Origin: Planctomycetota bacterium
GTDB lineage: Bacteria; Planctomycetota; UBA1135; UBA2386
Length of the DNA: 64,000 nucleotides
Assembly (NCBI GenBank): GCA_965223545.1
Contig: OZ245006.1
Location: forward strand, 2,144,001 to 2,208,000
Direction: 5' to 3'
Numbering within the stretch: the first letter of the stretch is position 1; each line of letters begins with the position of its first letter. This document shows positions 5,501 through 23,089 of the stretch, piece after piece. Below the pieces are notes generated by a model. The model was not told where the DNA came from. It made no database searches and saw nothing but the letters and a program-made list of their open reading frames with translations. A program made the translations under genes and the position numbers.

Positions 5501-5634
5501 CCGTCGCGGTCGGTGATCGCCAGCGTGTCGATGCCGTAGGCATGCGCCTGCTCGACCAGCTCTTCGGGGTGGCTGGCTCCGTGCAAGAACGAGAAGTTGG
5601 TCTTGCACCACAGCGGTACGTAGGCGTCGACCAC
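2566..5634 (-). CDS. dnaE2: Error-prone DNA polymerase DnaE2/ImuC
   Basis: PHP start ([16 protein letters not shown]), [25 protein letters not shown] fold, C-terminal SRDFH typical of DnaE2; GTG start at 5634. Confidence 0.95.
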
Positions 5635-5640
5635 CGCGAC

Positions 5641-5669
5641 ACGATGGAAGACAAATGTCTTCCACGCAA
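5641..5669 (-). promoter_or_regulatory. dnaE2 promoter (TTGCGT-17bp-CATCGT) containing candidate LexA operator TGGAAGACA-TT-TGTCTTCCA (5645-5664)
   Basis: Perfect 9-bp-arm palindrome; same core upstream of imuA and lexA. Confidence 0.8.
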
Positions 5670-5760
5670 GAACCCTTCCCATCGGCCCGGGCGCAGTGCC
5701 CGACCCGTGCCGGTCACGTTGACAACGCTTGGAGTAGCACATCAAAATCGCCCGGGCCCC

Positions 5761-8700
5761 ATGCCCCAGAACCATTTCCCCGTTCTGGCGACGCTGGCCT
5801 GCCTGCAGCCCGCGCTCGCGCAGAATCCCGCTCCTCGTTTCGAACGCGTCGATCCGCCGTCGGCGGGGATTCACTTCCGCACCGACGTCGCTGCCGACCA
5901 CCCCCTCGCCCGGCTCTACCACGCCGGGTTCTCCGCCGGCGCGGTCGCCATCGGCGACGTCGACGGCGATGGCCGGCCCGACCTGTTCTTCGCCGCCGGC
6001 CCCGAGGACAACGCCCTCTACCGGCAGACCGCTCCGTTCGAGTTCGACGACATCACCGCGCGCTCCGGCGTCGCCGGCGCCGGTCGCTGGAGCGCCGGCG
6101 CCTGTCTGGTGGACATCGACGACGACGGCGATCTCGACCTCTACGTCTGCAACTACGACAGTGAGAACCAGCTGTTCGTCAACGACGGCAGCGGCGTGTT
6201 CGCCGAGCGCGCGGCGGAGTTCGGCGTCGATCTGGTCGACTCCTGCGTCAACGCCACGTTCGGCGACTACGATCGGGACGGCGATCTCGACCTGTACGTC
6301 GTCACCTACCGCTACTACCGGGAAGGCGGCAAGCCTGCCACCGCACCGATCGAGATGGTCGACGGAGTGCCGCACATCGTCGACGACGAGCAGAAGCACT
6401 ATCGCGTCGCCGAGAACCCCAGGCCGCCGGGCTCGGACGAGCACCCCGGCTATCGGCTGCGCACCTACGGCCGCCACGACTACCTGCTGCGCAACGACGG
6501 CGGCCGGTTCACCGACGTCACCGAAGCAGCCGGCGTCCAGCACGAAGGCTTCGGCCTGTCGGCGACGTGGTGGGACTACGACGAGGACGGTTGGCCGGAC
6601 CTGTACGTGTGCAACGACTTCGATGGCCCGGACAAGCTGTTCCGCAACCACGGCGACGGCACCTTCTCCGACGTCCTGGTCGACGTCGTTCCGCACACGA
6701 CCTGGTTCTCGATGGGCTCGGCCGCGGGAGACCTCAACAACGACGGCCACATCGATCTGCTCGCCACCGACATGTCGGCGACGACGCATTTCATGCAGAA
6801 GACCACGATGGGGGCGATGAACGTCGCCAAGCTGAAGTCCGTCGCCGGCCCGCCGCCGCAGTACATGCGCAACACGGTGTACCTCAACACCGGCACCGGC
6901 CGAATGCTGGAAGCCGCCTATCTGCTCGGCTTGGCGGACAGCGACTGGTCGTGGTGCGTCCAGCTGGGTGATCTCGACAACGACGGCTGGACCGACGCGT
7001 TCATCACCAACGGCATGACGCGGAGCTTCAACGACTCCGACTTCGCCTTCCGCGAAGACATGCTGATCGGCCGCACGCACTGGGACGTCTATCGCGACAC
7101 GCCGCCGCGCCGCGAGCAGAACCTGGCGTTCCGCAACACCGGCGACCTCGGTTTCGACGACGCCAGCGCCGAATGGGGACTGGCCCATGTCGGCATCAGC
7201 TTCGGCGCCGCGCAGGGCGACCTCGACGGCGACGGCGATCTCGATCTGGTGGTCGGCAACCTCGACGAGCCGCCGAGCCTCTACCGCAACACCACCGATA
7301 CCGAGAACAAGGACTGGGTCGGGCTGCGGCTGCGGGGCACGCGCAGCAACCGGTTCGGCTTGGGCACGCGCATCGAGATCGAGCACGCCGGAGGCCGGCA
7401 GGTGCGCGTGTTGACGCCGTACATGCTGCACGGCAGCAACCAACCGGTGGTGCACTTCGGACTCGGCAAGGTGGAGGGTCTCGTGCGCGCCCGCTTGTCT
7501 TGGCCGAGCGGCATCGTGCAAGAGCTGGCCGACCTCGGCGTCTGCCAGTTCCACACCGTCGAGGAGGCCGGCGAGCCGGTGGAAGTGGCGCGCGCGGCAG
7601 CGACGCCGTGGCTCGCACCATCGACGGCGTTGGCCGACGTTCGGCACGAAGAAACCGAGTTCGACGATTTCCGCTTGCAGCCGCTGCTGCCCAACCAGCT
7701 CTCGCAGCTGGGCCCGGGGATGGCGTGGGGCGACATCGACGGCGACGGCGACGACGATGTGTACGTCGGCGGCGCCGGCGGACAGGCCGGCCAGCTGCGG
7801 CGCAACCTGGGTGACGGGAAGTTCGAAGCGGTGCGTTGCTTCGAGCTGCGACGCAGCGAGCGCTGCGAAGACATGGGCGCCTTGTTCTTCGACGCCGACA
7901 GCGACGGTGATCAGGACTTGTTCGTCGTCAGCGGCGGCGTCGAGATCCCGCCCGGCCTACCGTTCTTGAGCGACCGCCTCTACATCAACGACGGCACCGG
8001 CAACTTCGCCAGCGCGCCGCGTGGCTCCCTGCCGCGCGCCACCGACAGTGGCAGCGTCGTCTGCGCCGCCGACTTCGACCGCGACGGCGATCTCGACCTG
8101 TTCGTCGGCGGGCGCGTGGTGCGCGGCGAGTACCCGCTCGCCGCCAACAGCCGCTTGCTGCGCAACGACGGCGGCCGCTTCACCGAGGTCGACGGCACGC
8201 CGGAGACCCTGCGGCGCGCCGGGTTGGTGACGTCGGCGCTCTGGTCCGACGTCGACGCCGACGGCTGGTGCGATCTCTTGGTGACGCTGGAGTGGGGCCC
8301 CGTGCGGCTGTTCCGCAACCGCGACGGCACGCTCGCCGACGGCACCAATGAAGCCGGGCTGGCACGACACACCGGCTGGTGGAACGGCATCGCCGGCCGT
8401 GACCTCGACGGTGACGGCGACATCGACTACGTGGTCACCAACAACGGCTACAACACCAAGTACCACGCTTCGAACGAGCATCCAGCGCTGCTCTACTACG
8501 GCGACTTCGAGGGCAACGGGGTCAAGCGACTGGTCGAGGCCGAGTTCGAGCAGGACCACCTATTTCCGGTGCGTGGCCGCAGCTGCTCGACGCATGCGAT
8601 GCCCTCGCTGGGCGAGAAGATCAGCAGCTATCGCGAGTTCGCGCTCGCCAACCTCAGCGAGATCTACACCGAGCAATGTCTCGACGACGCCGTCCGGCTG

Positions 8701-9354
8701 GCGGCGACCACGCTGGCGTCCTCCGTCTTGCGCAACGACGGCGCCGGTCGCTTCACGGTCGAGCCTCTGCCGCGGTTGGCGCAGATCTCGCCCGGGTTCG
8801 GCGTCGTCGTCACCGAGTTGAACGGTGACGTCCACCCCGACGTCGTGTTGGCACAGAACTTCTTCACACCACAGGCCGAGACCGGTCGGTTCGACAGCGG
8901 CCTCGGCCTGGTGCTGCGCGGAACCGAGAGCGGGCTCGCACCGATGTGGCCGGCGGAGAGCGGCCTGTCGGTCCCCGGCGACGCCAAGGCGCTGACCACG
9001 GCCGACCTCGACGGCGATGGCGCCCTGGACCTGGTGATCACTGTCAACGACGGCCCGGTCGTCGCGTTCGCGAGCCGCGCCGGCACAGGCGGCTCGGTGA
9101 CGGTCGACCTGCAGGGCGCCGCCGGCAATCTCGACGCCGCCGGCAGCCGCGTCACTCTGCGGTTGGCAGACGGGCGCACCCAGACCGCCGAGGTCTACGC
9201 CGGCGGTGGCTACTTGTCGCAGTCGTCGAGCACTCTGGCGTTCGGCACCGGCGGCGCCGCGGTGGAGGGCATCGACGTGACGTGGCCCGACGGCAGCCGG
9301 TCGTCGACCGCGGGCGCGGCGGGCGTGCACCACTATCGCATCACGCAGCCCTGA
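5761..9354 (+). CDS. Secreted FG-GAP/VCBS repeat protein with two ASPIC/UnbV domains (CRTAC1-like)
   Basis: Signal peptide MPQNHF...PALAQ; many DxDGDGDLD repeats; two UnbV-type segments (VVHFGLG..WPSG; LAFGTG..VTWPDG). Confidence 0.88.
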
Positions 9355-9366
9355 CGGCCGACGCGC

Positions 9367-10869
9367 TCAATCGACGACTCCCTGCAGGAACCACCGCCGG
9401 CGCCGGCGGTCGTAGTACACCCACAGCACGTCACCGCCGCGGGTCTCGGCAAAGTAGTACTCGCGGTGCTGCTCGCGCCGCCACCAGCCGCCGGAGACGA
9501 CGAACGGTCCCGACAGGCCCTGCACGTCGGGCACCGGCTCGCCACGCCCATGGTCGTCCGCGCTCGCCGGTGCCAGCAGGCGCGGGCGGTCGAGCACCCG
9601 CCGCACCAACCGCGGTGAGATCACTTCTTCCGGCTGCGGAGCGCGCATGCGCTGCAGGGGCTGCCAGGCGAACTTCGCCTCCGGCAAATGTCCGTCGCGC
9701 ACCACGGCGCAGACCACGGCCGCGTCGCCGAGCTCGGCCCGCAGGCGCGCCAGCGCTCGATTGGCCGCCGCCAAATCGCGCCGCCGCGCGGCGGCGAACA
9801 GCTGCCGCTGCACGACGCCCGCCGGCGCGGTCTCGGCCGTCAGCTCGAAGCCCTCGACCTCGGCTTCGAGCTGCACGCTCTCCAGCCGTAGCCGCAACAG
9901 GTCGATGAGCTGCACCTCATCGAGAGTCGGCTCTGCCGGCCGCACCGTTTCGCGGTGCGGCGCGGCGCGTTCCAACCGCAGAGTCAAGTGCAACGCCGCC
10001 ACCGCCTCCCCTCGCCCACTCAAGCCCGCTGCCAGCCGCGCCAGCCGCTGCTTGCAGAGGAACAACAACCCCTGCACATCGAAGCCACTGGCACCTGGCT
10101 CGCACTCCATCTGCTCGCGCAGCGGATCGCGCACCGGCGCGGGCGACAGCGGCGCTCCGCCACCGCACGCCGCGCGGTGCACGCGATCGGCCTCTGCTCC
10201 GAAGCGGGTGCGCAGCGACCCCGCCGGCAACCGACGCAAGCCACCGACATCCTCGACGCCGAGCTGCAGCAACGCATCGCGCAGGCTCGGTTCGATCGCC
10301 GTGCGATGCAGCGGCACGCGGTCGCTGGCCTCGCGCTCGTCGGCCGCGCTACCGCAGACCGTGACGCGCCCCGGCGCACTAGCGCGCGCCAAGGCGTAGG
10401 TCGCGAAGCGATCGAACCCCACCACGGCGGCGGCCCGCAGCTGCAGGTCTGCCAACCGCGACAGTAGCTTCTGCCCCCACCGCGCGAACGCGTTCTCACC
10501 GGAGTCCGACCGACTGCCGTACAGCCGCTCCACGCCGGAAGCGTTCAGCCAGTGGACGCCGGGATCCGCCCCCGGCTCGATCTCCGGCGAGAACGCGCGC
10601 AACGCCCGCAGCAGCTCGGCGGCGGCAGCCTCGATCTCCGCCGCCGGTACCACCCCCGCGCGCAGATCGGCGAGCAGCGACAAGCCTTCGGCGTAGCGCC
10701 GCCCCGGCCAGATCCGCGCGCGGCGCGCGCGTTCGTTGACCCACAGGATCCGGCCCTGCGGCCGGTCCTCGTCGACGACCGCCACCGCGTGCCGCCGCCA
10801 CTCCGGCCGCCGGCGCAGCAAGAGCTGCAACGCCAAGGCCGGGACGTCAACGCAAGCCCAGCGGTCCAC
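9367..10869 (-). CDS. imuB: ImuB, Y-family DNA polymerase homologue
   Basis: WACVDVPALALQ N-terminus, C-terminal SGGWW..REYYFAE..LWVYYD..WFLQG; directly downstream of imuA. Confidence 0.88.
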   Translation of the reverse strand: MDRWACVDVPALALQLLLRRRPEWRRHAVAVVDEDRPQGRILWVNERARRARIWPGRRYAEGLSLLADLRAGVVPAAEIEAAAAELLRALRAFSPEIEPGADPGVHWLNASGVERLYGSRSDSGENAFARWGQKLLSRLADLQLRAAAVVGFDRFATYALARASAPGRVTVCGSAADEREASDRVPLHRTAIEPSLRDALLQLGVEDVGGLRRLPAGSLRTRFGAEADRVHRAACGGGAPLSPAPVRDPLREQMECEPGASGFDVQGLLFLCKQRLARLAAGLSGRGEAVAALHLTLRLERAAPHRETVRPAEPTLDEVQLIDLLRLRLESVQLEAEVEGFELTAETAPAGVVQRQLFAAARRRDLAAANRALARLRAELGDAAVVCAVVRDGHLPEAKFAWQPLQRMRAPQPEEVISPRLVRRVLDRPRLLAPASADDHGRGEPVPDVQGLSGPFVVSGGWWRREQHREYYFAETRGGDVLWVYYDRRRRRWFLQGVVD

Positions 10870-11506
10870 GCAACACCCGCACGCTTTCCCACGCCATCCC
10901 CCGCCGCTTGTCCTTCTGCGCCTGCACCGACACCGCGAAGCGGCCGGCTGCCAGTCGCACCCGCACCGACCGCACGCGCAGCGAAGCCATCGATCCCCCG
11001 CGCTCGACCGCCGCCCGGCCGGCACCCGCGGTCAGCAACAAGAGCGCGCTGTCGTGCTGCTTGGCCAGGCCGGCCAGCCGCACCTGCGCCGCGAGCGGCA
11101 CCGCGCCTTCGCCGCGCAGACGCGCACCGCGCTGGTCGACGACCGTCAGGCCGAACGCCCCCGAGCGCAGCAGGTGGTCCGCAGACCGCAGCATCGCCGC
11201 CATGCCGTCGGCGCACACGACCGCCAGAGCCTCGAGGTCGACCCCCATGCGCACCACGTCGGGGGGAAAGAAGGTCACCCCTGGCTCCGTCACCCAGGCC
11301 ACCGGCTCACGGCGTTGCTGCGCGTCGCGCACCATCGCCACCGCCGCCGTCGACACGCCCGCCGACGCACCGCCGACCAGCTCGACATAGCGCCCCGCCA
11401 GCTCCGCCAGACACCACGAGGGCGCATCGGACGCCACCGAAGAGGTCGCCCCCCACCACACCCGGCCGGACGCCAGCAGGCCATTCAGCTCCAACGCACT
11501 TGCCAT
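10847..11506 (-). CDS. imuA: ImuA / RecA-like mutagenesis protein
   Basis: GRYVEL, VAWV..FFPPD..GVDLEALAVV, LLRSGAFGLTVVD; degenerate Walker A; overlaps imuB start. Confidence 0.8.
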   Translation of the reverse strand: MASALELNGLLASGRVWWGATSSVASDAPSWCLAELAGRYVELVGGASAGVSTAAVAMVRDAQQRREPVAWVTEPGVTFFPPDVVRMGVDLEALAVVCADGMAAMLRSADHLLRSGAFGLTVVDQRGARLRGEGAVPLAAQVRLAGLAKQHDSALLLLTAGAGRAAVERGGSMASLRVRSVRVRLAAGRFAVSVQAQKDKRRGMAWESVRVLRGPLGLR

Positions 11507-11513
11507 CGGAACC

Positions 11514-11533
11514 GTTTTAGCAGACATTTGTCC
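11514..11533 (-). promoter_or_regulatory. imuA promoter with candidate LexA operator GGACA-AA-TGTCT (11522-11533) followed by -10-like TAAAAC
   Basis: 11/12 match to the operator core, same position relative to the -10 as at lexA and dnaE2. Confidence 0.72.
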
Positions 11534-11540
11534 ACCATCA

Positions 11541-11627
11541 GGAGTCGGGCTCGATTTTCTCGCTTCGCCGGCGCGCCGCCGCCTGGCGGCGGCGCGCCGG
11601 CGAAGCGAGAAAATCGAGCCTGACTCC
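11541..11627. repeat. 87-bp near-perfect palindrome (43-bp arms, 1-nt loop, one mismatch)
   Basis: GGAGTCGGGCTCGATTTTCTCGCTTCGCCGGCGCGCCGCCGCC-T-GGCGGCGGCGCGCCGGCGAAGCGAGAAAATCGAGCCTGACTCC. Confidence 0.95.
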
Positions 11628-11642
11628 GTACCGGCCGAGATC

Positions 11643-14600
11643 ATGGCGCCCATGTTCCCAAGGCCCCCCTCGTTACGAGCCTCTCTCTACGGGTTGTCGG
11701 TCGCGTTCGCCGCAGCCGCGCCAACGAGTTCGCAGACCCACACGCTCGACATCGCAGTCCGCACTGGAGCGACGTTCAGCTCGATCGACGCGCAGGTTGC
11801 GGTCAACGATCAGCGCACCATCGCGTTCACCGGCGCGGATGCCAAAGGCAACGGTGTGTTCGCGATGCCCGACCAGGGACAACCAAGAGCCCTCGCGCCA
11901 CAGGCCAGCAGCCGCAACTACTCGGCTGCCGCGATCAACGACACCCTGGTTCCTGAGGTCACCACGCGCGAACGCGCTTCGGGAGCGCCGCCGGTGTACT
12001 TCTTCCGTCGCTGGAGCACTTCCGGGCTGACCGCGACCATCGTCGGGCGTTCGCCCGGAGATTTCGACTCGGCCGTGTCTCGCCTCGACATCAACAACCG
12101 CTCGACGGTCGTTGGAGTCGCACTCGTCGGGGGTCTTTCGTCGACCGCACTCGTCGCCGGATCGGCGTCTCCTCCGACTCGGCTAGCGACCTACTCCGGC
12201 CTGCAGCAGCTGTGGCCGCAGATCTCCGACGACGACGTGGTGGTGGTCACCGATCCGCAGTCGCGGGTCGTCACCTGGCCGTATCCCACGGGGACCGGCG
12301 AAGTCTTTGCCAGCCCAGGGAGCGGCTTCTCCTCGGTCGGAGTGAAGCCCGGCATCAGCGATGACGGGAGCACCGTCGCTTACATCGGCGACAAGGGCGC
12401 GGGCTCGGGGATCTTCATCGGGCTGCGCGGCATGGGAGCCTCCTACCAGTTGCTGGTCGCTGGCGCCGGCACCGAGAACTTCACCGCCATCGACGGCAAC
12501 CACCGCGCAGGAGTCACCGCATCCGGCTCTCTCAGCACGGGCAAGTGGGTCATGCTCGCGTTCCATGGAACGCGCAGCGGCAAGAGCGGGGTGTACTTCG
12601 CACAGCTGCGAGTTCGCGACGTGTCGGGCACGCTGATGGTCGACCGCAAGTCGATCACCGAGATCGCGACGATCAGCACCGCGGTCGGCGGCGCCAACCT
12701 GACCTACGTCGATCTACATCACCCGATCAACGACCGCGGGGACGTCTGCTGTTTCGCCAGCCTCGATGACGGCTCGTCGGCGATCCTGTTGGCCCGCCGC
12801 ACCACGACCGAGATCCGCGACGCCGTGGACTTCGTCGACCCCGCGACGCTGACCGTGTACAGCTCGCCACAGAAGCTCGACGGCGAAGACGGCCAAGAAC
12901 GGATCGGCGTAGCCGCCGATGGCGCTGCACAGCTGTTGTTGCGCGCCACCGTGCCGGGGCCCGGCACGGTGACGTTCAAGTTCGCCGAGCCTAGCGCCAG
13001 CGGGCAAGGCGAGCTGGCTGCGCCCGGCAGTGCGTTCGGCACCGGTGCGGTCACCGCCGCCGCGACGAACGCGAATCCCACCGGCAACTACCGCGGCTAT
13101 TGCCTGTATCGGGGGCCCGCCGACTTCGTCCGGCCGGCGACCAACGACGACGGCGAGGCAACCCGAGCTGTCCCCATCGACGTCGAGTTCCAACCCACGG
13201 CGGGACCGACTACCGGAGACCGCGTCGAGATCGAGCTCTGCCGCCCACCCGTGGTCCTGGCGCACGGGCTGTGGTCCGATGCCGCGACCTGGAAGGGGTC
13301 GTTCGCCGCTCTGCAATCCGGCAGCGAGCCGCGCTTCTTCAGCCATGCAATCGATTACAGCGGCCCACTCGCATCGGCGCCGTTCTCGGCGAACGTGCCG
13401 ACCGTCCGGCTCGGCATTCAGATTGCGCGCAAACTCGCGCACGATGCCGGATTCGCCGCATCCCAGGTCGACTGGGTCGGGCACAGCATGGGCGGTGTGC
13501 TGCCACGCGTCTACTACGAGCGCGCTGCACGCAACGTCGGGGTCGCCTGGAAGAACGCGGCCAACTTCGGCGGCGGTGAGATCCACAAGCTGATCGTGCT
13601 CAACTCGCCGCAGTGGGGCTCACCGTTCGGCAACATGCTGCCCATCGTCACCCAGAATCTCGCGATCAAGGGCTTCGTCCAGGAGTACCTGGAGGGGTAT
13701 GAGGACAATGGAGCCATCGCCAATCTGGCCGAGGGCAGTCCGGCGTATCAATCGATCGGCGCCACTCCGATCCCCACCCACGCACTCGTCGGAGTCGGAG
13801 TGGAGACCCAGATCGCGGGCGCGACGACGACGGTGAATGCTCTGGCCAGGTTTGTGCCACCGCCAACCAGCACGTTTCTGCGGATTGCCGGGCTGTTCGC
13901 GCGCCTGACCAACTCGCTGGTCTACCGCGGCCACCGCCACGACCTGATCGTGCTCGAGAACAGCCAATCCGCGGGCCTCCCCACGAACGCCGTCACGATC
14001 TACAACGGCGGCCTGACCTACCTCCACATGGGCGTCACCAGCAACCAGAGCTACTACGACAAAACCGTCGACCTGTTGCACGCGCCGGTCGCCGGGCCCG
14101 AGTTCGCGCCGCTGCCGGCGCCCAACCTCAATCCCGCGCGTCTGGCGACACCGCCCACCCCCACAGCCACGGCCAACTTGAGCTTCGTGACACCTGCGCT
14201 GGGCGCGACGCTGCAGCCCAACCAATCGGTGACCGTCGAGGTCACACCGACCGGGGGCTTCACCCCGACCTCGGTGGACCTCTTCCTCGGCAGCGACTAC
14301 GCCACCGTGACCTCCCCGCCGTGGCGACACACGTTCACCGTGCCGGCCGAATCGGTGGGCGCGATCGACATCTTGGCGATCGGGGTCGATGCCGGAGGAT
14401 CGCCGGCACTCGCAGGCCCACAGGCGCACGGCATCAACGTCAACGCAACCCTCCAATCAGTGACGGTCGGGCCGCAGGGCACCGCCCTGGTGGAGCCACT
14501 CGAGGAAACCCGGCTCCAAGTCCTCGGCCAGTACTCCGACGGCGTGACGCGCGATCTGACGCGCGCCGCGACCGGCACGACGTACTCGGCCGCGCCAGCC

Positions 14601-15122
14601 GGGATCGTTCGCGTCTCCGCGGATGGACACGTCACCGTGTCCGGCCAAGGCACGGCGACGATCACCGCGTCGAACGCGGGCTTGTCGGGCAACACCGACG
14701 TCGACGTCGCTTTCCCTGCGACGACCGGCTACGGCACGGGAACCGCCGGTGCCGGCGGATTGGTGCCCACCCTCAATGCTCGCGGCGGCCTACCACAACC
14801 CGGCAATCCCGGCTTTCAGCTCGTCTTCGACCGGATCCGCGGCGGCGCACCGGGACAGCTCATCATCGCCGCCCAACCGGCGGACCTGAGCTGGCAGGGT
14901 CTCCGCATCCTGTTCCTACCCATACTGCTGATCAACTTCCCGATGGTCGCGAGCGGGCCGACGGGACAAGCCGGGGCAGGGCAAGTCGTCGTGCCGATCC
15001 CGATCCCCGCACGACCGAGTCTCATCGGCGGCAGCTTCTTCGTGCAGGGCTTCTTCGCCGACGCCGCCGCTGCGCCAGGGCTGTCCCACACGCAAGGACT
15101 CGCCGTCACGATCCAACCCTGA
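11643..15122 (+). CDS. Large secreted protein with alpha/beta-hydrolase (lipase/PGAP1-like) domain and Ig-like domains
   Basis: Signal peptide; VLAHGLWS oxyanion motif; WVGHSMGG nucleophile elbow; Big_2-like segment (GQYSDGVTRDLT..GTATITAS). Confidence 0.8.
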   Translation: MAPMFPRPPSLRASLYGLSVAFAAAAPTSSQTHTLDIAVRTGATFSSIDAQVAVNDQRTIAFTGADAKGNGVFAMPDQGQPRALAPQASSRNYSAAAINDTLVPEVTTRERASGAPPVYFFRRWSTSGLTATIVGRSPGDFDSAVSRLDINNRSTVVGVALVGGLSSTALVAGSASPPTRLATYSGLQQLWPQISDDDVVVVTDPQSRVVTWPYPTGTGEVFASPGSGFSSVGVKPGISDDGSTVAYIGDKGAGSGIFIGLRGMGASYQLLVAGAGTENFTAIDGNHRAGVTASGSLSTGKWVMLAFHGTRSGKSGVYFAQLRVRDVSGTLMVDRKSITEIATISTAVGGANLTYVDLHHPINDRGDVCCFASLDDGSSAILLARRTTTEIRDAVDFVDPATLTVYSSPQKLDGEDGQERIGVAADGAAQLLLRATVPGPGTVTFKFAEPSASGQGELAAPGSAFGTGAVTAAATNANPTGNYRGYCLYRGPADFVRPATNDDGEATRAVPIDVEFQPTAGPTTGDRVEIELCRPPVVLAHGLWSDAATWKGSFAALQSGSEPRFFSHAIDYSGPLASAPFSANVPTVRLGIQIARKLAHDAGFAASQVDWVGHSMGGVLPRVYYERAARNVGVAWKNAANFGGGEIHKLIVLNSPQWGSPFGNMLPIVTQNLAIKGFVQEYLEGYEDNGAIANLAEGSPAYQSIGATPIPTHALVGVGVETQIAGATTTVNALARFVPPPTSTFLRIAGLFARLTNSLVYRGHRHDLIVLENSQSAGLPTNAVTIYNGGLTYLHMGVTSNQSYYDKTVDLLHAPVAGPEFAPLPAPNLNPARLATPPTPTATANLSFVTPALGATLQPNQSVTVEVTPTGGFTPTSVDLFLGSDYATVTSPPWRHTFTVPAESVGAIDILAIGVDAGGSPALAGPQAHGINVNATLQSVTVGPQGTALVEPLEETRLQVLGQYSDGVTRDLTRAATGTTYSAAPAGIVRVSADGHVTVSGQGTATITASNAGLSGNTDVDVAFPATTGYGTGTAGAGGLVPTLNARGGLPQPGNPGFQLVFDRIRGGAPGQLIIAAQPADLSWQGLRILFLPILLINFPMVASGPTGQAGAGQVVVPIPIPARPSLIGGSFFVQGFFADAAAAPGLSHTQGLAVTIQP

Positions 15123-15175
15123 TGGTACGGAGCCTGGCTCCGTACCTTCGATCCAACCCTGATGGTACGGAGCCT
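15109..15175. repeat. 40-bp-period tandem duplication containing REP-like palindrome GGTACGGAGCC-T-GGCTCCGTACC; second copy interrupted by IS110
   Basis: CGATCCAACCCTGATGGTACGGAGCCTG at 15109 and 15149; intact palindrome 15124-15146; missing half resumes at 16822-16835. Confidence 0.92.
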
Positions 15176-15185
15176 GACCTGAAAC

Positions 15186-16568
15186 TCACCCAGCCTCGAC
15201 GATCGGTATGAGCTTGTACCCGAGGGATTTAGCGTTCTGTCGGAGTCCGACGATGCGTCGCTGGGTGAAGCGCTCCTCGTAGGCCTTGGCGCCTTCGTCT
15301 ACGTAGTCCTGGCCGAACTTCAGCATGCGGTAGATGAGCAGGGCCAGTTTGCGGGCGATGGCAAAGATGGCGACGTTGCCGTCCTTCGCGCGGGCGATCT
15401 TGCGGAAGTGTGCGCCGAGAGCTGTCTGAGTACGTTGGAGGGACAGGGCGGCCATCCGGAGGACCGTGGCGATCCTGCTGACCGCGATGTTGTTGCGGTG
15501 CTTCTTGATGCGCTTTCCACCCGAGACGGCTTGACGTGGGCACAGGCGTAGCCAGGAGACGAAGTGCTTCTCGGTCGGGAAAGCATCGAGGTCGTAGCCG
15601 ACCTCGGTGAGCACGATCATGGCCGTGCTCGGGCTGATACCGTCGATTCGCGTGAGATCACACCCGACGAGCCGGCAGAGGGCATCGCGAAGCTCCCGGC
15701 CGCCCTTCGTTCGGATGCTCCTCTCCTTGCGGGGGTCTGGATGCTCGGGGACGTCGGCCGTCTTGGCTTCCTCCGGTTGCAGGTCCTCGATCATCGCCAT
15801 CAATCGCTTCTCGACCGACTCGATCTCGTGGTCGGTGTGCTCGAGCATCCGCAAGCCCGAAGCGAGAGTGAAGATGTGCTCCTCGATCCAGGTCCCTTGC
15901 AAGTGATCCGCGAGCTCCTTCTCGGAGATCTTGCAGCGCGGATCACGCAGTCTGGCGAGCGCTCGAGGGTCGCGTTCACCAGCGAGAATCGCGCGGATGA
16001 TCGCGAGGCCGGTCTTGCCGGTGATGTCCGTTACCGCGCGATGGATCGCCACGTTCATCTGATCCAGTGACCGCTGCATCAACTGCGTGTGGCGCGTGCG
16101 CTGCGCGATCAAAGACGCGGCATGGCGTTGCAGGGTCCGCAACGCACAGATGTCCTTCGGAGGCCGGAACGAAGCGCGAATGAGGCCATAGGTGTGTAGC
16201 TTCTGCAGCCAACTGCAATCGCTGGCATCGGACTTGGAGCGGCCCGGCACGTTCTTCACCTCGCGGGCATTCGCGAGGATGACCTCGAAGCCTCTCGACT
16301 CGAGTAGCTCGTAGACGGGAATCCAGTAGACATAGGTGCTCTCCATCGCGACGGATCGCACTCCGAGCTCCTCCAGCCAGTCCGCGAGCGCCTCTAGTTG
16401 GGGCGTCGTCGTTCCGAATCGCTTGATCGGACGACTGCCGTCGGGTGCTGCTGCGCACACCCAGTGCTCGCGGCTGCCGATGTCGATTCCGGCGGCGTTG
16501 GGCTTCACGACTGGTAATACTTCCGCTGCGGGCTTCTTGCCCTTCCTCGTTCTGCCCTTCCGAGCCAT
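15186..16568 (-). CDS. IS110 family transposase/recombinase (DEDD + Tnp20 domains)
   Basis: GIDIG, AMEST, KSDASD catalytic motifs; IDGIS..VLTEVG..CPRQAVSGG; AIARKL; AAGGAGG RBS. Confidence 0.95.
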   Translation of the reverse strand: MARKGRTRKGKKPAAEVLPVVKPNAAGIDIGSREHWVCAAAPDGSRPIKRFGTTTPQLEALADWLEELGVRSVAMESTYVYWIPVYELLESRGFEVILANAREVKNVPGRSKSDASDCSWLQKLHTYGLIRASFRPPKDICALRTLQRHAASLIAQRTRHTQLMQRSLDQMNVAIHRAVTDITGKTGLAIIRAILAGERDPRALARLRDPRCKISEKELADHLQGTWIEEHIFTLASGLRMLEHTDHEIESVEKRLMAMIEDLQPEEAKTADVPEHPDPRKERSIRTKGGRELRDALCRLVGCDLTRIDGISPSTAMIVLTEVGYDLDAFPTEKHFVSWLRLCPRQAVSGGKRIKKHRNNIAVSRIATVLRMAALSLQRTQTALGAHFRKIARAKDGNVAIFAIARKLALLIYRMLKFGQDYVDEGAKAYEERFTQRRIVGLRQNAKSLGYKLIPIVEAG

Positions 16569-16819
16569 ACTTCATCCTCCTTGTTGTGGTGGGCCCGGCC
16601 CGAGGCGGCGATCAAACGAATCTGACCTGCGGGAGTGGGCACGGCGACGTGCCCCTCACCAGTGAAGGATGGCCAACTCGGACCCAGACTGGCTCTGGGG
16701 CAAACGTGCTCCAGTGGCTATTGGGGGCGTAGCTGCCGGGCCCCTCACACGTTCCCCGCCCCCTTCCTCAGCGGCTAGTTTCCTGCCCTGAAGGGCCGAC
16801 AAAATCTGTCGGGGCAGGA
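16569..16819 (-). ncRNA. Predicted IS110 bridge/seek RNA region
   Basis: Several hairpins; GAGCCAG (16695-16689) matches target flank plus core; CAGGTCAG (16629-16622) matches the donor end plus core; RNA boundaries unknown. Confidence 0.65.
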
Positions 16820-16833
16820 CTGGCTCCGTACCT

Positions 16834-19536
16834 TCAGAAGGGGCGGTAGAAGACGCGGAGCTCCTGGACCGACACGGATTGGGCCAGGCCGCGGTCGAAC
16901 AGGAGCTGGAAGCGCAGGACGGTGGCGTCGGCGGTGTCCAGCACCACTTCGCCGGCCGGGGCAAAGCCGCCGACATAGCGCAGCCATCCGCTCACGGTCG
17001 TCGGGTCGACGTTGCCGCCGGGGTCGTACTGGGCACCTTGGATCCACAGACGCACGGGCTGACCATCGGTCGCCAACACGCCCACAGTGGGATCGTCGCT
17101 GTAGGTGATCGGCACGCCATCGACGATCGCGTCCAGCTCGTAGCGCAAGAACTCCGGCGGGAACAGCTGCTGCGTGCCGATCCAGAGCGACTGCGATGCG
17201 ACGACGGGATCGCGGTCGACGAGCCCGGCGATGCTGGTGCCCGGGCCACTCGCCGGCGTCACGCTCCCGATCAACGACGCCGCGCCGCCGCCGGCGACCT
17301 CGACGCGCACCTGACCGCGACCGCCCGCTCCCCCGCGCGCCTCCATCGTGGCCGCCGGCGGGCCGAACGTCGTGCCCGCCGACCCGCCGGCGACGTCCAA
17401 CCCACCGTCCTGGTCGATGCGTTGGCCCACTTGCAACAGGATGCTGCCGCCCGAGCCGCCGCCGCCGGGCACCGCGTAGGCGTTGGTCGGCGCCAACACG
17501 CCGGCCATGCCGGTGGTGGAACCGCCGGAGGCGTCGATGGCACCCGTATCCGACACGCTCAGATCGCGGCCCGCGCGCACCGCGACCGCGCCGCCCCCGG
17601 CGGCACCACCGCCGCCCGACCGCCAGGAAACCAACGCCGCGATCGAGAAGAACGGGTGGCCGCCCGCGCCGCCGCCGCCCGCCCCGCCGACCACGAAGTG
17701 GTCCAACGAGCTCGACCCCGCCGGCCGCGGCAACAAAGAGAACTCGCGGCCGGCACGCCCGTCGGGGCCGGCTTCGGCCGGGTCGCCGTTGTGGGTCGCG
17801 ACGACCGTGCCGGCCTCTCCGGGCGCCATGAGCGCGCCCCCACCCCCACCCGCCGCGACCTGCGACGAGTACAACCCCGCCACCTGCGTGGTGACCACCG
17901 ACGCGTTGCGTCCATCGGCGGGAAACAACGCAGAACCCCGTCCGCCGCTGCCCGCGGCGCGCGCCGCATAGGCGTGGCCGGCCGACAAGACCGCGTCCCG
18001 CCCCCTCTCGCCGGAGAAGCGCGGCAGGGCGCCGAGTCCGTTGCATCGATCCGCGCCGGCCCCACCGCGTGCGCTCCCGGCCGCCCCACCCGCGGCGCCG
18101 CCATCGGCACCGGGCTGCCCGGTGACGGAGTCGCCGTCCGGCATCGGCCGCCCGACGCCCGACAGGTCCAGCACGCCGTCGATGACGGCGTTGCCGCTGA
18201 CCGAGATGCGCGCCGGGTGGGCTCCCACGAAGCGCACCGTCGTGCCCGCGCCGATGTGGAACTGGGAGAAACGGTAAACGCCATCGGTCACGCGCAGGTC
18301 GGTGCCGGTGCGCGTGCGAACGCGGGAGATCAGCGAGTCCTCGGTGTTCCACTCGTAGACCCCCGGCGCGATTTCGGTGCCGTCGGCCGGGTCGAACACG
18401 CCGTGGATCGCGTCGCCGCCAATGGCACCGGGCAGGGCTTCACCGTTGGCCCAGACCCCGGAAGACGCCCGGTGGTCCAGCTGCAAGTCGTTGTCGAAGG
18501 TCTCGACCAGCGCCACCTCCGCGCGCTGGGAGGGCGCCGTGACGAAGGAGAACACTTTCTCAGCGGCGGGCTTGCCGGACAGATCGACGACGCGCGGCGT
18601 CACCCGGACTTCGACACAGAGCCCACCGGGGACTTCCGAGTCGGGCCGGAAGCTGCCGACCGTCAGCTGACGCAAGGGGTCGTTGAACAGGTCCCAAGTG
18701 CCGGGCACCACGACGGGCGCCGAGGCCGGGTCGCACTGCACACCGCCGCCCGGGGCCGGGCGAGTGTCGCGCACCGTGACCGCCACCGGCTGCGCGCGGT
18801 TGCTCGACGTGATGAACGGAGCCTGGTCGATCACCTCGGAAAACTCGAGCACGATCGGGGTCAGCGGATCGACGCCGGTCGCCAACACCGGCGACAGCAG
18901 CTCGGCACTCGGCGGCTGGCCGTCGAAATCGACGACGCCAAGGGTGACGCTCAACGAGCACCGATAGTCCTCGAGCAACGGATCGCCCGCCGTCGAGCGC
19001 AAGACGCCGACCTGATTGCCGCCACGCACGTAGAGCTGATAGGTCTCCGCCGGACGAAAGCCGAAGAAGCTCTGGGAACCCACGACGCGGATCTCGGGCA
19101 CGAACATCACCGTCGGGCCATTGGTCAGCAACTGACCCACCGGCTCCTCACCGGTCGTCGTGCGCAGCGAAACCGTCGCCGACGACACCGTCGCGGGATC
19201 GACATCCTGACTGAACACCAGCACGATCGGCTGGTTCTGCGCAATCTGGTTGATGCCGCATCCGGCCTGCGTGCAGCCCAGGTTGCACGACTGCAAACAC
19301 AGAGCCGGCCCCGCGGCCGAGGGGGCCGTGCACGACGACTGCAACACCGGTCCAGCACTGCCGCCGCCAGAGCACCCGACACCACCGAGCGCCATCGTGA
19401 CTCCGAGGAGCCCGGCCAAGGAGCGGCCGGCCCGAAGGGCAGGGCGGGACTCGACCACGCGATCAGGGGAGCGCTCGGGCATGAGAACCTGGGACCGGAT
19501 CGGCACCATCGCCAAGGAGGCGAGCACCGGAGACAT
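16834..19536 (-). CDS. Large exported (probable lipo)protein with Ig-like (Big_5-type) domains and glycine-rich region
   Basis: LGGVGC lipobox-like; IVLVFSQDVDPATV and IVLEFSEVID Ig-like motifs; GGGGSGGSILL repeats; start uncertain. Confidence 0.7.
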   Translation of the reverse strand: MSPVLASLAMVPIRSQVLMPERSPDRVVESRPALRAGRSLAGLLGVTMALGGVGCSGGGSAGPVLQSSCTAPSAAGPALCLQSCNLGCTQAGCGINQIAQNQPIVLVFSQDVDPATVSSATVSLRTTTGEEPVGQLLTNGPTVMFVPEIRVVGSQSFFGFRPAETYQLYVRGGNQVGVLRSTAGDPLLEDYRCSLSVTLGVVDFDGQPPSAELLSPVLATGVDPLTPIVLEFSEVIDQAPFITSSNRAQPVAVTVRDTRPAPGGGVQCDPASAPVVVPGTWDLFNDPLRQLTVGSFRPDSEVPGGLCVEVRVTPRVVDLSGKPAAEKVFSFVTAPSQRAEVALVETFDNDLQLDHRASSGVWANGEALPGAIGGDAIHGVFDPADGTEIAPGVYEWNTEDSLISRVRTRTGTDLRVTDGVYRFSQFHIGAGTTVRFVGAHPARISVSGNAVIDGVLDLSGVGRPMPDGDSVTGQPGADGGAAGGAAGSARGGAGADRCNGLGALPRFSGERGRDAVLSAGHAYAARAAGSGGRGSALFPADGRNASVVTTQVAGLYSSQVAAGGGGGALMAPGEAGTVVATHNGDPAEAGPDGRAGREFSLLPRPAGSSSLDHFVVGGAGGGGAGGHPFFSIAALVSWRSGGGGAAGGGAVAVRAGRDLSVSDTGAIDASGGSTTGMAGVLAPTNAYAVPGGGGSGGSILLQVGQRIDQDGGLDVAGGSAGTTFGPPAATMEARGGAGGRGQVRVEVAGGGAASLIGSVTPASGPGTSIAGLVDRDPVVASQSLWIGTQQLFPPEFLRYELDAIVDGVPITYSDDPTVGVLATDGQPVRLWIQGAQYDPGGNVDPTTVSGWLRYVGGFAPAGEVVLDTADATVLRFQLLFDRGLAQSVSVQELRVFYRPF

Positions 19537-19616
19537 TGCTGGAGGACCGGGAAACCCCGATTGTAGTCCCGCTGCGGCCCGATCTGGGGGGGCAACTTCA
19601 GCCCGACCGAGCCCCG

Positions 19617-20216
19617 CTACATCGAACGCCGCAGTTCGACCACGACACCGAGGATCTGAAGCACCGCCGGGTCCGGAACGATCGGCGCGAAGCGGGAGTT
19701 CTCGGGGTGCAACTCCACCCGGCGGCCCCGGCGCCGCAGCGTCTTCACCGTCGCCTCGTCCCCGACCATGGCGACCACCACCTGGCCACTCTGCGCTTCG
19801 GACTGCCGCCGCACCACCACGACGTCACCGTCGAGGATGGACAAGCCGATCATGCTGTCGCCGCGCACTCGCAGGGCGAAGAACGCCTCGCCCGGCAAGC
19901 GCGCATCGATCGCGACAAACCCGTCTGGCGCCTCGATCGCCGCCTGCAGATCGCCAGCCGGCACATCGCCCAAGACCGGCACCAGCCGGGGCGGAACGCC
20001 CGCCGCCCCCGGCAGCCGATAGCCGCGCGCGCCGGCCGCCTGCTCGAGCCGCCCAGCGGCGACCAACGCCGCCAGGTGTTTGCGCGCCGACTCCACCGCG
20101 CGAAAGCCCAATGCCTGCTGTACTTCGCGAACCGTTGGCGGAGCGCCCGCCGCCAAACGGTCGCGGACGTAGGTGAAGACTCTCTCTCGGTTGAGGCCGG
20201 GGGGAGAGTACGCCAT
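19617..20216 (-). CDS. lexA: SOS repressor LexA
   Basis: wHTH PPTVREV..LGF; Ala-Gly cleavage site (VPAG); catalytic Ser (RGDSM) and Lys (ATVK). Confidence 0.93.
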   Translation of the reverse strand: MAYSPPGLNRERVFTYVRDRLAAGAPPTVREVQQALGFRAVESARKHLAALVAAGRLEQAAGARGYRLPGAAGVPPRLVPVLGDVPAGDLQAAIEAPDGFVAIDARLPGEAFFALRVRGDSMIGLSILDGDVVVVRRQSEAQSGQVVVAMVGDEATVKTLRRRGRRVELHPENSRFAPIVPDPAVLQILGVVVELRRSM

Positions 20217-20224
20217 CGGCCGAG

Positions 20225-20253
20225 AGTATGTCAGACATTTGTCTTCCGGCCAA
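20225..20253 (-). promoter_or_regulatory. lexA promoter (TTGGCC-17bp-CATACT) containing candidate LexA operator AGACA-AA-TGTCT (20233-20244)
   Basis: Perfect 12-bp palindromic core inside the spacer; autoregulatory position. Confidence 0.82.
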
Positions 20254-20316: not shown

Positions 20317-22941
20317 CTACTGCACTTCGGCCGGAGCTCGCTGGCGCAAGCGCAGCTCCCCGTCTTCGACCTCGACGAGCAAGGTGGTGCCGTCGCCCAC
20401 CTCGCCGGCGATCAAGGCGCGACCGATGCGCGTCTCGAGCTCGCGCTGCAAGAACCGCTTCAGCGGCCGCGCGCCGTAGACCGGGTCGTAGCCGCGGTTG
20501 GCGATGAACGTCCGCGCCCCGTCGGTGAGCTCCAAGCCGAGGCCGCGATCTTCCAGCCGGCCGCGCAGCTGCGCCACCAGGAGGTCGACGATCTGCTCGA
20601 TCTCACTGCGCTGCAGCGGTCGGAACAGCACCGTTTCGTCGATGCGGTTGAGGAACTCCGGGCGGAACGCGCGCCGCAGCTCGGTCATCACCGCGCCCCG
20701 CGCCTGCTCGTCGATCTCGCCGTCCGCCGAGATTCCCTCGAGGAGGTGCGCCGCGCCCAAGTTGCTGGTCATGATCAGCACCGTGTTCTTGAAGTCCACG
20801 GTGTGGCCCTGGCTGTCGGTCACGCGGCCGTCGTCGAGAATCTGCAGCAGCACGTGGAACACGTCGGGGTGCGCCTTCTCGATCTCGTCGAACAAGACGA
20901 CCGAGTACGGCCGGCGGCGGATCGCTTCGGTCAGCTGCCCGCCTTCGTCGTAGCCGACGTAGCCGGGCGGAGCGCCGATCAGCCGCGACACCGAGTGCTT
21001 CTCCATGTACTCCGACATGTCGATGCGAACGATGTTGTCCTCGCTGTCGAACAGAGCCTCCGCCAGCGCGCGCGCGAGCTCGGTCTTGCCGACACCGGTC
21101 GGTCCGAGGAACAGGAACGAACCGATCGGGCGGCGCGGGTCCTTGATGCCCGCCCGGCTGCGGATCACCGCGTCGGCGACCAGCTGCACGGCCTCGTCCT
21201 GTCCGACGACCCGCTGGTGCAAGATTCCGTCGAGGTGCAGCAGCTTCTCGCGCTCGCCTTCGACCAGCCGCGCCACCGGCACGCCCGTCCAACGGCTGAT
21301 GATCTCGGCGATCTCCTGGTCGGTGACCTCTTCGCGCAGCAGCGCGTCGCCGGTATCGCGCTCGGCGAGCTTGGCCTCCTCGTAGGCGAGCAGCTTCTCG
21401 GCCTCGGGAAGCTTGCCGTGCTTGATCTCCGCGGCGCGGTTCAAGTCGTAGGCGCGCTCCGCCGCCGCCATCTCGCGGCGCAGCTCCTCGATCCGCTCGC
21501 GCAGATCGCGCACCGTCTGGATCGCCGCCTTCTCGGCCTCGTAGCGTGCGCGCTGGGCGTCGGCCTGCGCGCGCAGGTCGGCGAGCTCGCGGCGCAAGTC
21601 CTCGAGCCGCTGCCGGCTGGCCTTGTCCTTCTCCTTTGCCAACGCCGCTTCCTCGATCTCCAGCTGCATCACACGGCGGGTCGAGGCGTCGAGCTCCGCC
21701 GGCATCGAGTCGATCTCGGTGCGGATCATCGCGCACGCCTCGTCGACCAGATCGATCGCCTTGTCCGGCAAGAACCGATCGGTGATGTAGCGGTGGGACA
21801 GGGTGGCGGCCGCCACCAGCGCGTTGTCCTGGATGCGCACTCCGTGGTGCACTTCGTAGCGCTCCTGGAGCCCGCGCAGGATCGAGATCGTGTCCTCGAC
21901 GGTCGGCTGCTCGACCATCACCGGCTGAAAGCGACGCTCGAGCGCGGCGTCCTTCTCGACGTACTTGCGGTACTCGTCGAGGGTGGTCGCGCCGATGCAG
22001 TGCAGCTCGCCCCGGGCCAACATCGGCTTCAGCAGATTGCCGGCGTCCATCGCGCCGTCCGCCTTGCCGGCGCCGACGATGGTGTGCATCTCGTCGATGA
22101 ACAGCACGATCCGTCCCTCGGCGTCGCGGACTTCGTTGAGCACCGCCTTGAGCCGTTCCTCGAACTCGCCGCGGTACTTGGCGCCCGCGACCAGCGCACC
22201 GAGATCCAGCGCGAACACCGTGCGATCGCGCAGCGAGTCCGGCACGTCACCCCGCACGATGCGCTGCGCCAGTCCCTCGGCGATCGCGGTCTTGCCCACT
22301 CCGGGCTCGCCGATCAACACCGGGTTGTTCTTCGTCTTGCGGCTGAGGATGCGAATCACCCGACGGATCTCTTCGTCGCGGCCGATGACCGGATCGAGGG
22401 CGCCGTCGCGCGCCGCCTTGACCAGGTCCCGCCCGTAGCGGCCGAGCGCCTCGTAGGTGGCCTCCGGATTCGCGCTCTGCACGCGCTGGCTCCCGCGCAC
22501 TTCCTTCAGGGCGTGCAGGAACCCGTCCGGTGACACCCCGTGCTTCTGCAGCAGTACTCCGACCGGCGTGCCGCTGCTGACGCCCAAGATCGCCAACACC
22601 AGGTGCTCGACCGACACGTACTCGTCCTTCATCCGCTGTGCCTGCCGCTCGGCGTCGACCAGCACCTTGGAGAGCGCTTGCGAGACGTAGATCTTGCCGG
22701 CCTCGTAGCCCGGACCGGACATGCTGGGCCGCTTGCGCAGCTCGGCCTCGAGCTCCCGGACCATCGCGTCCGGGGCAACGTCCATCTTGGCCAACAAGCG
22801 CGGCACCAGACCATCGCCTTGCTCGAGCAGGGCTGCGAGCAGATGCGGCAGATCCACCTCTTGGTGGCCGAAGGTGACGGCCTTGTTCTGCGCGGCGGCC
22901 ATCGCTTCCTGCGACTTCTGGGTGAGCTTGTTCATGTCCAT
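20317..22941 (-). CDS. clpB: ATP-dependent disaggregase ClpB
   Basis: Clp N domain, two AAA+ modules ([16 protein letters not shown]), coiled-coil M domain, GARPLKR. Confidence 0.97.
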
Positions 22942-23089
22942 GTGTGGGCCCTCAATCCTGAGACGGTTGCGTGTCGCTGCACCACCCAACACATCCCGTG
23001 CCGCGCGAATGAAGACCTCAAGCCACTGCTAATACGTGACTTATGGCGTCGGTGGAACCTCGAAACGGGGCCCGGATTACGCCAAAATG

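Follow-up and report, generated by a model that had tools for sequence, protein, structure and literature searches.

Which regulator reads a palindrome that recurs in front of lexA, imuA and dnaE2 in a Planctomycetota genome, and how far does its regulon reach? The locus lies in a 64,000-nucleotide stretch (the window) of contig OZ245006.1 (assembly GCA_965223545.1, positions 2,144,001 to 2,208,000), where a mutagenesis cassette is split into lexA, imuA-imuB and dnaE2 units. Comparative sequence evidence makes it highly probable that the palindrome is the operator of a second LexA, encoded at 19617-20216, with a regulon private to this split cassette. The type of system, a private second LexA carried on the cassette, is already known; the motif and the repressor lineage seem undescribed. 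The elements concerned are given below, with position weight matrix (PWM) scores in bits and genome ranks for the predicted operators.

2566-5634, minus strand: dnaE2 (imuC), error-prone C-family polymerase, 1022 aa, GTG start; NF004225 1329 bits against a cut-off of 939
5641-5646, minus strand: -10-like hexamer of dnaE2 (CATCGT), 6 nt before the GTG; function predicted from orthologue position
5645-5664, unstranded: putative operator of dnaE2, core 12-mer 5649-5660; PWM 20.1, genome rank 3
5664-5669, minus strand: -35-like hexamer of dnaE2 (TTGCGT), 17-bp spacer; weak consensus, below the strict scan
9367-10869, minus strand: imuB, Y-family-like scaffold, about 500 aa, overlapping the end of imuA; Pfam IMS above cut-off
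10847-11506, minus strand: imuA (RecA-like, ImuA'-type), 219 aa; Pfam RecA; NF033429 weak, below cut-off
11514-11519, minus strand: -10-like hexamer of imuA (TAAAAC), preceded by TGn, 7 nt before the ATG
11518-11537, unstranded: putative operator of imuA-imuB, core 12-mer 11522-11533, one flank deviating; PWM 14.7, genome rank 10
19617-20216, minus strand: second lexA paralogue (product P0001), 199 aa; winged-helix and S24 peptidase
20225-20230, minus strand: -10-like hexamer of lexA (CATACT), preceded by TGn, 8 nt before the ATG
20229-20248, unstranded: putative operator of the second lexA, core 12-mer 20233-20244; PWM 23.0, genome rank 2
20248-20253, minus strand: -35-like hexamer of lexA (TTGGCC), 17-bp spacer

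Exactly three matches to RGACANNTGTCY were found in the window, at 5649-5660, 11522-11533 and 20233-20244; the mean in shuffled windows was 0.16, and three were reached in none of 100 shuffles. The original prediction had reported these sites and no others. Allowing one mismatch added a single match, at 16144, within an IS110 gene. On either strand, the 10-mer GACAAATGTC occurs three times in the 8.1-Mb genome (1.03 expected), each time at one of the window's three promoters. Across the genome the 12-mer shows no enrichment (6 observed versus 5.18 expected under an order-4 Markov model), and the signal therefore lies in its position. Each palindrome ends 2 nt before a -10-like hexamer of lexA, imuA(-imuB) or dnaE2, the spacer is 17 bp in the dnaE2 and lexA promoters, and the gaps from hexamer to start are 6, 7 and 8 nt for dnaE2, imuA and lexA, respectively; these features and the flanks were all as first described. 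The 12-mer core was also found at all three sites, but the dnaE2 site is longer than had been noted, its palindrome spanning 20 bp (5645-5664) with arms of 9 bp. A strict sigma-70 scan picked up none of the three promoters, their -35 and -10 elements being weak, so the calls of these elements rest on orthologues. The scan gave a single match, which belongs to the divergent ASPIC gene; it lies 59 bp away from the dnaE2 box and is probably not under regulation. An Rfam search over window positions 1-26000 returned no match. A hairpin at 11541-11627, with a stem of about 42 bp, stops 8 nt short of the imuA operator and occupies the position where an imuA -35 would lie; the 115-base stretch that was folded gave -102 kcal/mol. 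The hairpin is one of a REP/REPIN-like family whose arms are conserved and whose centres vary, represented by 166 blastn high-scoring segment pairs in the genome.

The gene identities proposed originally were upheld: lexA and dnaE2 exceed the TIGR00498 and NF004225 cut-offs, respectively, imuA is RecA-like but falls below the ImuA cut-off, and imuB matches Pfam IMS. P0001 contains PF01726 and PF00717 above cut-off and scores 146 bits against 110.95 for TIGR00498. Its residues Ala87-Gly88, Ser121 and Lys158 align with those of Escherichia coli LexA, and none of the four varies among 42 clade members. The Pfam domains identified in dnaE2 are PHP, NTPase, finger, HhH and OB, and imuA orthologues sit between lexA and imuB. 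The components of a LexA-regulated cassette, imuA, imuB and dnaE2, are thus all present, with a predicted operator at every cassette promoter (three sites).

A search with P0001 returned 80 loci in metagenome-assembled genomes (MAGs) labelled as about 11 phyla, plus two doubtful labels (Burkholderiales and Nitrosopumilus). The genes stand in the order lexA-imuA-imuB-dnaE2 at 55 of the 80 loci, and at least one cassette gene is present at 74. The promoter set comprised 90 regions, with three duplicates removed. Relatives labelled Planctomycetota belong to the window genome's family (G009 equals L003 and G018 equals L004, their upstream sequences being identical). In an unbiased count of spaced palindromes, ACA-N2-TGT ranked first, found in 65/90 upstream regions, 5/90 downstream regions and 0/17 controls from lexA1, the gene for the primary LexA (LexA1). 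Among 4-mer spaced palindromes the leader was AGAC-N4-GTCT (39 upstream versus 4 downstream). Motif discovery on orthologous upstream regions, which the original prediction had proposed, recovered the same palindrome: de novo expectation maximization (EM) gave CAGAC-N4-GTCTG at the same site with or without a symmetry constraint, and the clade consensus is CAGAC-A-WW-T-GTCTG within a footprint of about 20 bp. PWM scores of at least 10 bits were obtained for 75/90 upstream regions (the training set), 5/90 downstream regions and 0/16 lexA1 regions; all five downstream matches are second boxes immediately behind lexA, at the start of the following cassette gene. In 19 held-out phylum genomes, 14 upstream regions and none of the 19 controls matched, several of the misses being symmetric variants. 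The usual arrangement in orthologues is a TTGACA-like hexamer, a 17-18-bp spacer filled by the box, and a TATAAT-like hexamer. Positions 4 and 13 vary together: among 47 distinct 16-mers they are G/G in 27, T/T in 10, C/C in 1 and mixed in 9, both halves matching in 38, and further symmetric variants occurred in the held-out set. The exact 12-mer AGACAWWTGTCT was matched in only 5 of 61 relatives, two of them at control level, and is therefore too strict for the window genome's family. When metagenomes were scanned for the motif first, 9 of 120 exact matches lay beside lexA, imuA or dnaE2 and none beside recA; none of 121 exact 14-mer matches on viral contigs lay beside cassette genes or recA.

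The original prediction treated the palindrome as the SOS box of the lineage, and this part was not borne out. Two LexA proteins above the family cut-off are encoded in the genome, the window's being the second paralogue (hereafter LexA2); a second LexA of its type is present in 13 of 60 relatives. De novo EM on 29 upstream regions of recA and lexA1 returned a direct repeat of period 11, CCTAACA-N4-CCRAACA, which scores 23-35 bits on 14/14 recA regions from the family and order (training set). The three best genome matches of this repeat are at recA and lexA1 (L001 G000:C1:4117921-4117971; L180 G000:C1:7584658), and the window's three promoters score 0 or less for it. The palindrome reached 10 bits in 0/14 family and order recA regions and in 0/29 recA and lexA1 regions. 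The direct repeat resembles the alphaproteobacterial GTTC-N7-GTTC type, and a literature search for a Planctomycetes LexA motif found no description of it. In several relatives a short ORF, hydrophobic at its C-terminus, lies behind LexA1 boxes and ahead of lexA1 (L001, about 1295-1470; also L097, L100, L106 and L112); it could encode an SOS-induced membrane division inhibitor.

A general SOS box, with the window LexA running a genome-wide regulon that includes recA, uvr and recN, is an alternative reading, albeit a very unlikely one. Twelve PWM matches of at least 14 bits occur in the genome, with the window's sites at ranks 2, 3 and 10, and in three distant genomes (G062, G063 and G064) the cassette LexA, of the window type, is the only full-length LexA found. 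The nine other top matches in the window genome lie in coding or unrelated regions, with no recognisable SOS promoter as judged from ORF context, the uvrA and recN promoters not having been individually located. When patterns were applied to ten distant genomes, the yield was 0-2 sites per genome, most of them at the lexA cassette, and this was so even for genomes in which its LexA was the sole full-length one; the two extra sites examined were in or before non-SOS genes. In G062, G063 and G064 the box occurs essentially once, and recA would therefore escape LexA control there. Because recA and lexA1 carry the direct repeat, as do cassettes lacking an intact LexA2 (described next), the palindrome is best read as a cassette-private operator.

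The operator assignment is further supported by how the box follows transcription units and the repressor gene. In random sequence the 95th percentile was 5.4 bits for the palindrome and the 99th percentile 10.0 bits for the direct repeat. Where lexA directly precedes imuA (G002, G017, G020 and G022), no box lies between the two genes; the only box stands before lexA (18.5, 14.1, 16.8 and 7.3 bits, respectively), with imuA and dnaE2 at 2.8 bits or less. In eight other genomes of the family the cassette is split, and a box precedes imuA in 8/8 (5.6-18.3 bits) and dnaE2 in 6/6 examined (7.6-17.4 bits); G008 (truncated) and G029 (in pieces) are omitted from the dnaE2 count. Split loci in distant genomes (L005, L007, L028 and L033) likewise have a second box before dnaE2. 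Only one LexA was found in G023, G026 and G036 (assemblies 89, 58 and 75% complete), and the second LexA of G031 (L096, G031:C36:39424-40005) is decaying, having lost its Ala-Gly site and catalytic Lys. In these four genomes the cassette promoters lack the palindrome (3.4 bits or less), and the LexA1 direct repeat is found at 5 of the 6 examined (15.2-26.0 bits).

Several observations weigh against this reading. The top PWM match in the genome (23.7) is not at an SOS gene, and four of the eight split-cassette imuA scores, at 5.6-7.0, barely exceed the random 95th percentile. Seven of the eight split-cassette relatives lack a box before the second lexA, so that autoregulation has often been lost in the window genome's family, the window and G009 retaining the box. 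The dnaE2 promoter of G036 carries neither box, and the imuA promoter of G028, where LexA2 is intact, carries both. G026 and G036 may have lost the second lexA gene merely in assembly, and related genomes are not independent; the co-occurrence of repressor and box therefore provides comparative support and not a statistical test.

The geometry ACA-N2-TGT is not unique to LexA, the box of BlaI/CopY-like winged-helix proteins being TACA-N2-TGTA. Together with the frequent absence of a box at the second lexA in the family, this would favour the primary LexA1, or some other dimeric regulator such as a protein of the BlaI/CopY type, as the binder of the site. LexA1 has its own direct repeat, however, and in about 11 phyla the palindrome accompanies the LexA2 gene, its place being taken by another box where that gene is absent or decayed; binding by LexA1 or another regulator is therefore highly improbable. 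Equally improbable is a promoter element (of an alternative sigma factor or an extended -10) or a chance palindrome: the box does adjoin the -10, in two window promoters an extended -10 takes its TG from the box, and the 12-mer is unenriched, but dyad symmetry with paired half-site changes is unexpected for a sigma element, ordinary hexamers flank the box in orthologues, and chance is excluded by the shuffles, the unbiased palindrome count and the held-out set. The original assignment of the palindrome as the operator of the window's LexA is very probably correct, given its conservation at orthologues, its symmetric changes, and its appearance and disappearance with the repressor.

From established LexA biology (PMC9578287 and PMC3323433), we infer LexA binding, repression and RecA-dependent induction at these sites. 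A LexA dimer would sit between the -35 and -10 of lexA, imuA-imuB and dnaE2 and block RNA polymerase. Upon DNA damage, RecA* would trigger self-cleavage of LexA at Ala87-Gly88 via Ser121/Lys158, releasing the three units and allowing an ImuA-ImuB-DnaE2 mutasome to be built, and recA and lexA1 would answer to the primary LexA through the direct repeat. Most often the cassette forms a single operon with one box; in a broken-up cassette such as that of the window, each piece carries a promoter and a box of its own. Judged from spacing alone, the cassette transcripts are probably leaderless.

The position of the repressor among LexA proteins was assessed in quick trees (IQ-TREE), with Pseudomonas putida LexA2, Myxococcus xanthus LexA and cyanobacterial LexA outside the sampling. 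In a tree of rows of at least 170 aa, the 91 LexA2 rows formed one side of a long branch (SH-aLRT 100), with LexA from E. coli, Ralstonia, Xanthomonas, Bacillus, Nonomuraea and Geobacter and the family's LexA1 on the other. The clade stayed delimited among the best 150 profile matches from 1.84 billion representatives, and the 10 clade clusters examined contained no named cultured members. Five gammaproteobacterial LexA2-type proteins (Xanthomonadales) grouped with the LexA of E. coli, Ralstonia and Xanthomonas (SH-aLRT 95/98), separate from the window-type clade (SH-aLRT 96). A sister relation to gammaproteobacterial LexA2, hinted at by a shared ARKH in helix 3, was ruled out by the quick tree. 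Some proteins about 1340 aa long also begin with a LexA2-type helix-turn-helix (HTH) (L182:2971-3183; P0311, P0313, P0317-P0323); a copy of this HTH on a Xanthomonas plasmid is closely preceded by a GTAC-N4-GTTC site.

Within the clade, there is a hint from sequence comparison that residue 40 (the E. coli Ser39 column) tracks operator position 4: G/G was found with Ala in 45/53 cases and with Ser/Thr in 1/24. The correlation is not significant when the tree is allowed for (five changes, one supported independent pair), and two held-out loci, L465 (Ser, G/G) and L456 (Ala, T/G), break the pattern; these results, too, count against the reading.

The Pseudomonas LexA2 box is GTAC-N4-GTGC, which differs from the window palindrome. 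P0001 falls outside the Xanthomonadales LexA2-type clade, the members of which were stand-ins for P. putida LexA2. In P. putida, LexA2 controls lexA2-imuA-imuB-imuC(dnaE2) (Abella 2004, 2007, via PMC3901139 and PMC5261740). The same four genes in the same order are found in most of the window-type clade (the 55 loci above), and in both systems the cassette has a second LexA to itself while the primary LexA uses another box, here as judged by motif. The window differs in that its cassette is split into three boxed units.

Other motifs for comparison were drawn from PMC8565304, PMC9578287, PMC9705874, PMC2248561 and PMC3091678. The site shares the AC-N4-GT geometry of the Firmicutes, cyanobacterial, Geobacter and Myxococcus boxes and fits no consensus. 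The cyanobacterial box, RGTACNNNDGTWCB or AGTACWNWTGTACT (PMC3091678, PMC2248561), shares with the window motif both its 14-bp dyad geometry and its top dyad, ACA-N2-TGT, and some clade members with Ser/Thr at residue 40 (L009 and L017) carry GTAC-N4-GTAC, nearly identical to listed cyanobacterial sites. All three window sites, however, match only 7/11 positions of RGTACNNNDGTWCB and 8-9/13 of AGTACWNWTGTACT; the outer pentamer is CAGAC rather than AGTAC, and the regulon is the cassette rather than recA/ssb/uvrA. The Firmicutes/Actinobacteria box, CGAAC-N4-GTTCG (PMC9578287, Table 1), has the same AC-N4-GT core and 14-bp length, the clade consensus amounting to a two-base swap per half-site, but the window sites do not fit CGAACRNRYGTTYC (8-9/13 positions), and the Bacillus and Nonomuraea LexA are outside the clade. 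With the Geobacter box, given in its source as GGTT-N2-C-N4-G-N3-ACC or GGTT-N10-AACC, the palindrome shares the C-N4-G core, and in a lexA promoter of Geobacter anodireducens the GGTT frame encloses a GACA left core. The window sites lack the defining GGTT/ACC flanks (5-6/9 positions), the recognition helix differs, and Geobacter LexA is likewise outside the clade. The M. xanthus box, CTRHAMRYBYGTTCAGS, has a direct regulon of recA2, lexA and pafBC-cyaA but not the cassette (PMC9705874); it overlaps the window sites partially and in register (10-12/17) without a full match, and Myxococcota MAGs contain members of the window-type clade. No fit was found to the boxes of E. coli (CTGT-N8-ACAG, 1-2/8 positions), Bdellovibrio (TTAC-N3-GTAA, 3/8) or Verrucomicrobia (TGTTC-N4-GAACA as quoted in the original prediction, 3-4/10), and the Balneolaeota motif is a different direct repeat (PMC7739468). 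Novelty, as originally claimed, thus holds in part: no exact published match was found, but the motif is related to known boxes through the cyanobacterial top dyad. A literature search that included motif strings found no description of the operator in the sources covered; most subscription papers, the Verrucomicrobia paper, CollecTF and RegPrecise lay outside this coverage and could list the motif.

LexA is unusual in how often its operator changes, and lexA duplication is a proposed route (PMC8565304). A wider reading can be offered tentatively, at somewhat less than an even chance: an undescribed, horizontally spread LexA lineage would form a private-repressor mutasome independent of Pseudomonas LexA2, with its own operator in at least 11 phyla. 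It would provide a natural series of SOS rewiring, in which operon splitting leads to new operators, repressor decay leads to the LexA1 box, and one helix-3 residue (the Ser39 column) sets one base (G for Ala; T or C for Ser/Thr). The clade offers many natural repressor-operator pairs with symmetric variants, as well as genomes that have already passed from one LexA system to the other, which makes both the specificity code and the hand-over model directly testable. With the motif, damage-inducible mutagenesis can also be annotated across many uncultured lineages. The findings add a motif and a lineage, both new, and a test bed, but no new mechanism.

An FG-GAP/ASPIC-UnbV protein (5761-9354) and a 1159-aa protein with no Pfam match and a weak hydrolase-like NCBIfam match (11643-15122) are encoded on the opposite strand between the cassette parts; such inserted genes are absent beside the cassette in relatives' loci and are therefore not counted as parts of it. 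The IS110 transposase gene (15186-16568) has 23 near-identical copies in the genome (98.6-100%), so IS110 has recently been active. A 900-aa Ig-like (Big_5) protein (16834-19536) is encoded on the same strand as lexA, starting 80 bp after it; no terminator-like site separates the two, and the gene may therefore be co-transcribed and damage-induced, although in relatives' loci lexA lacks this neighbour. On its upstream side, the second lexA is directly adjoined by clpB (20317-22992), an arrangement also found in G009 (L003).

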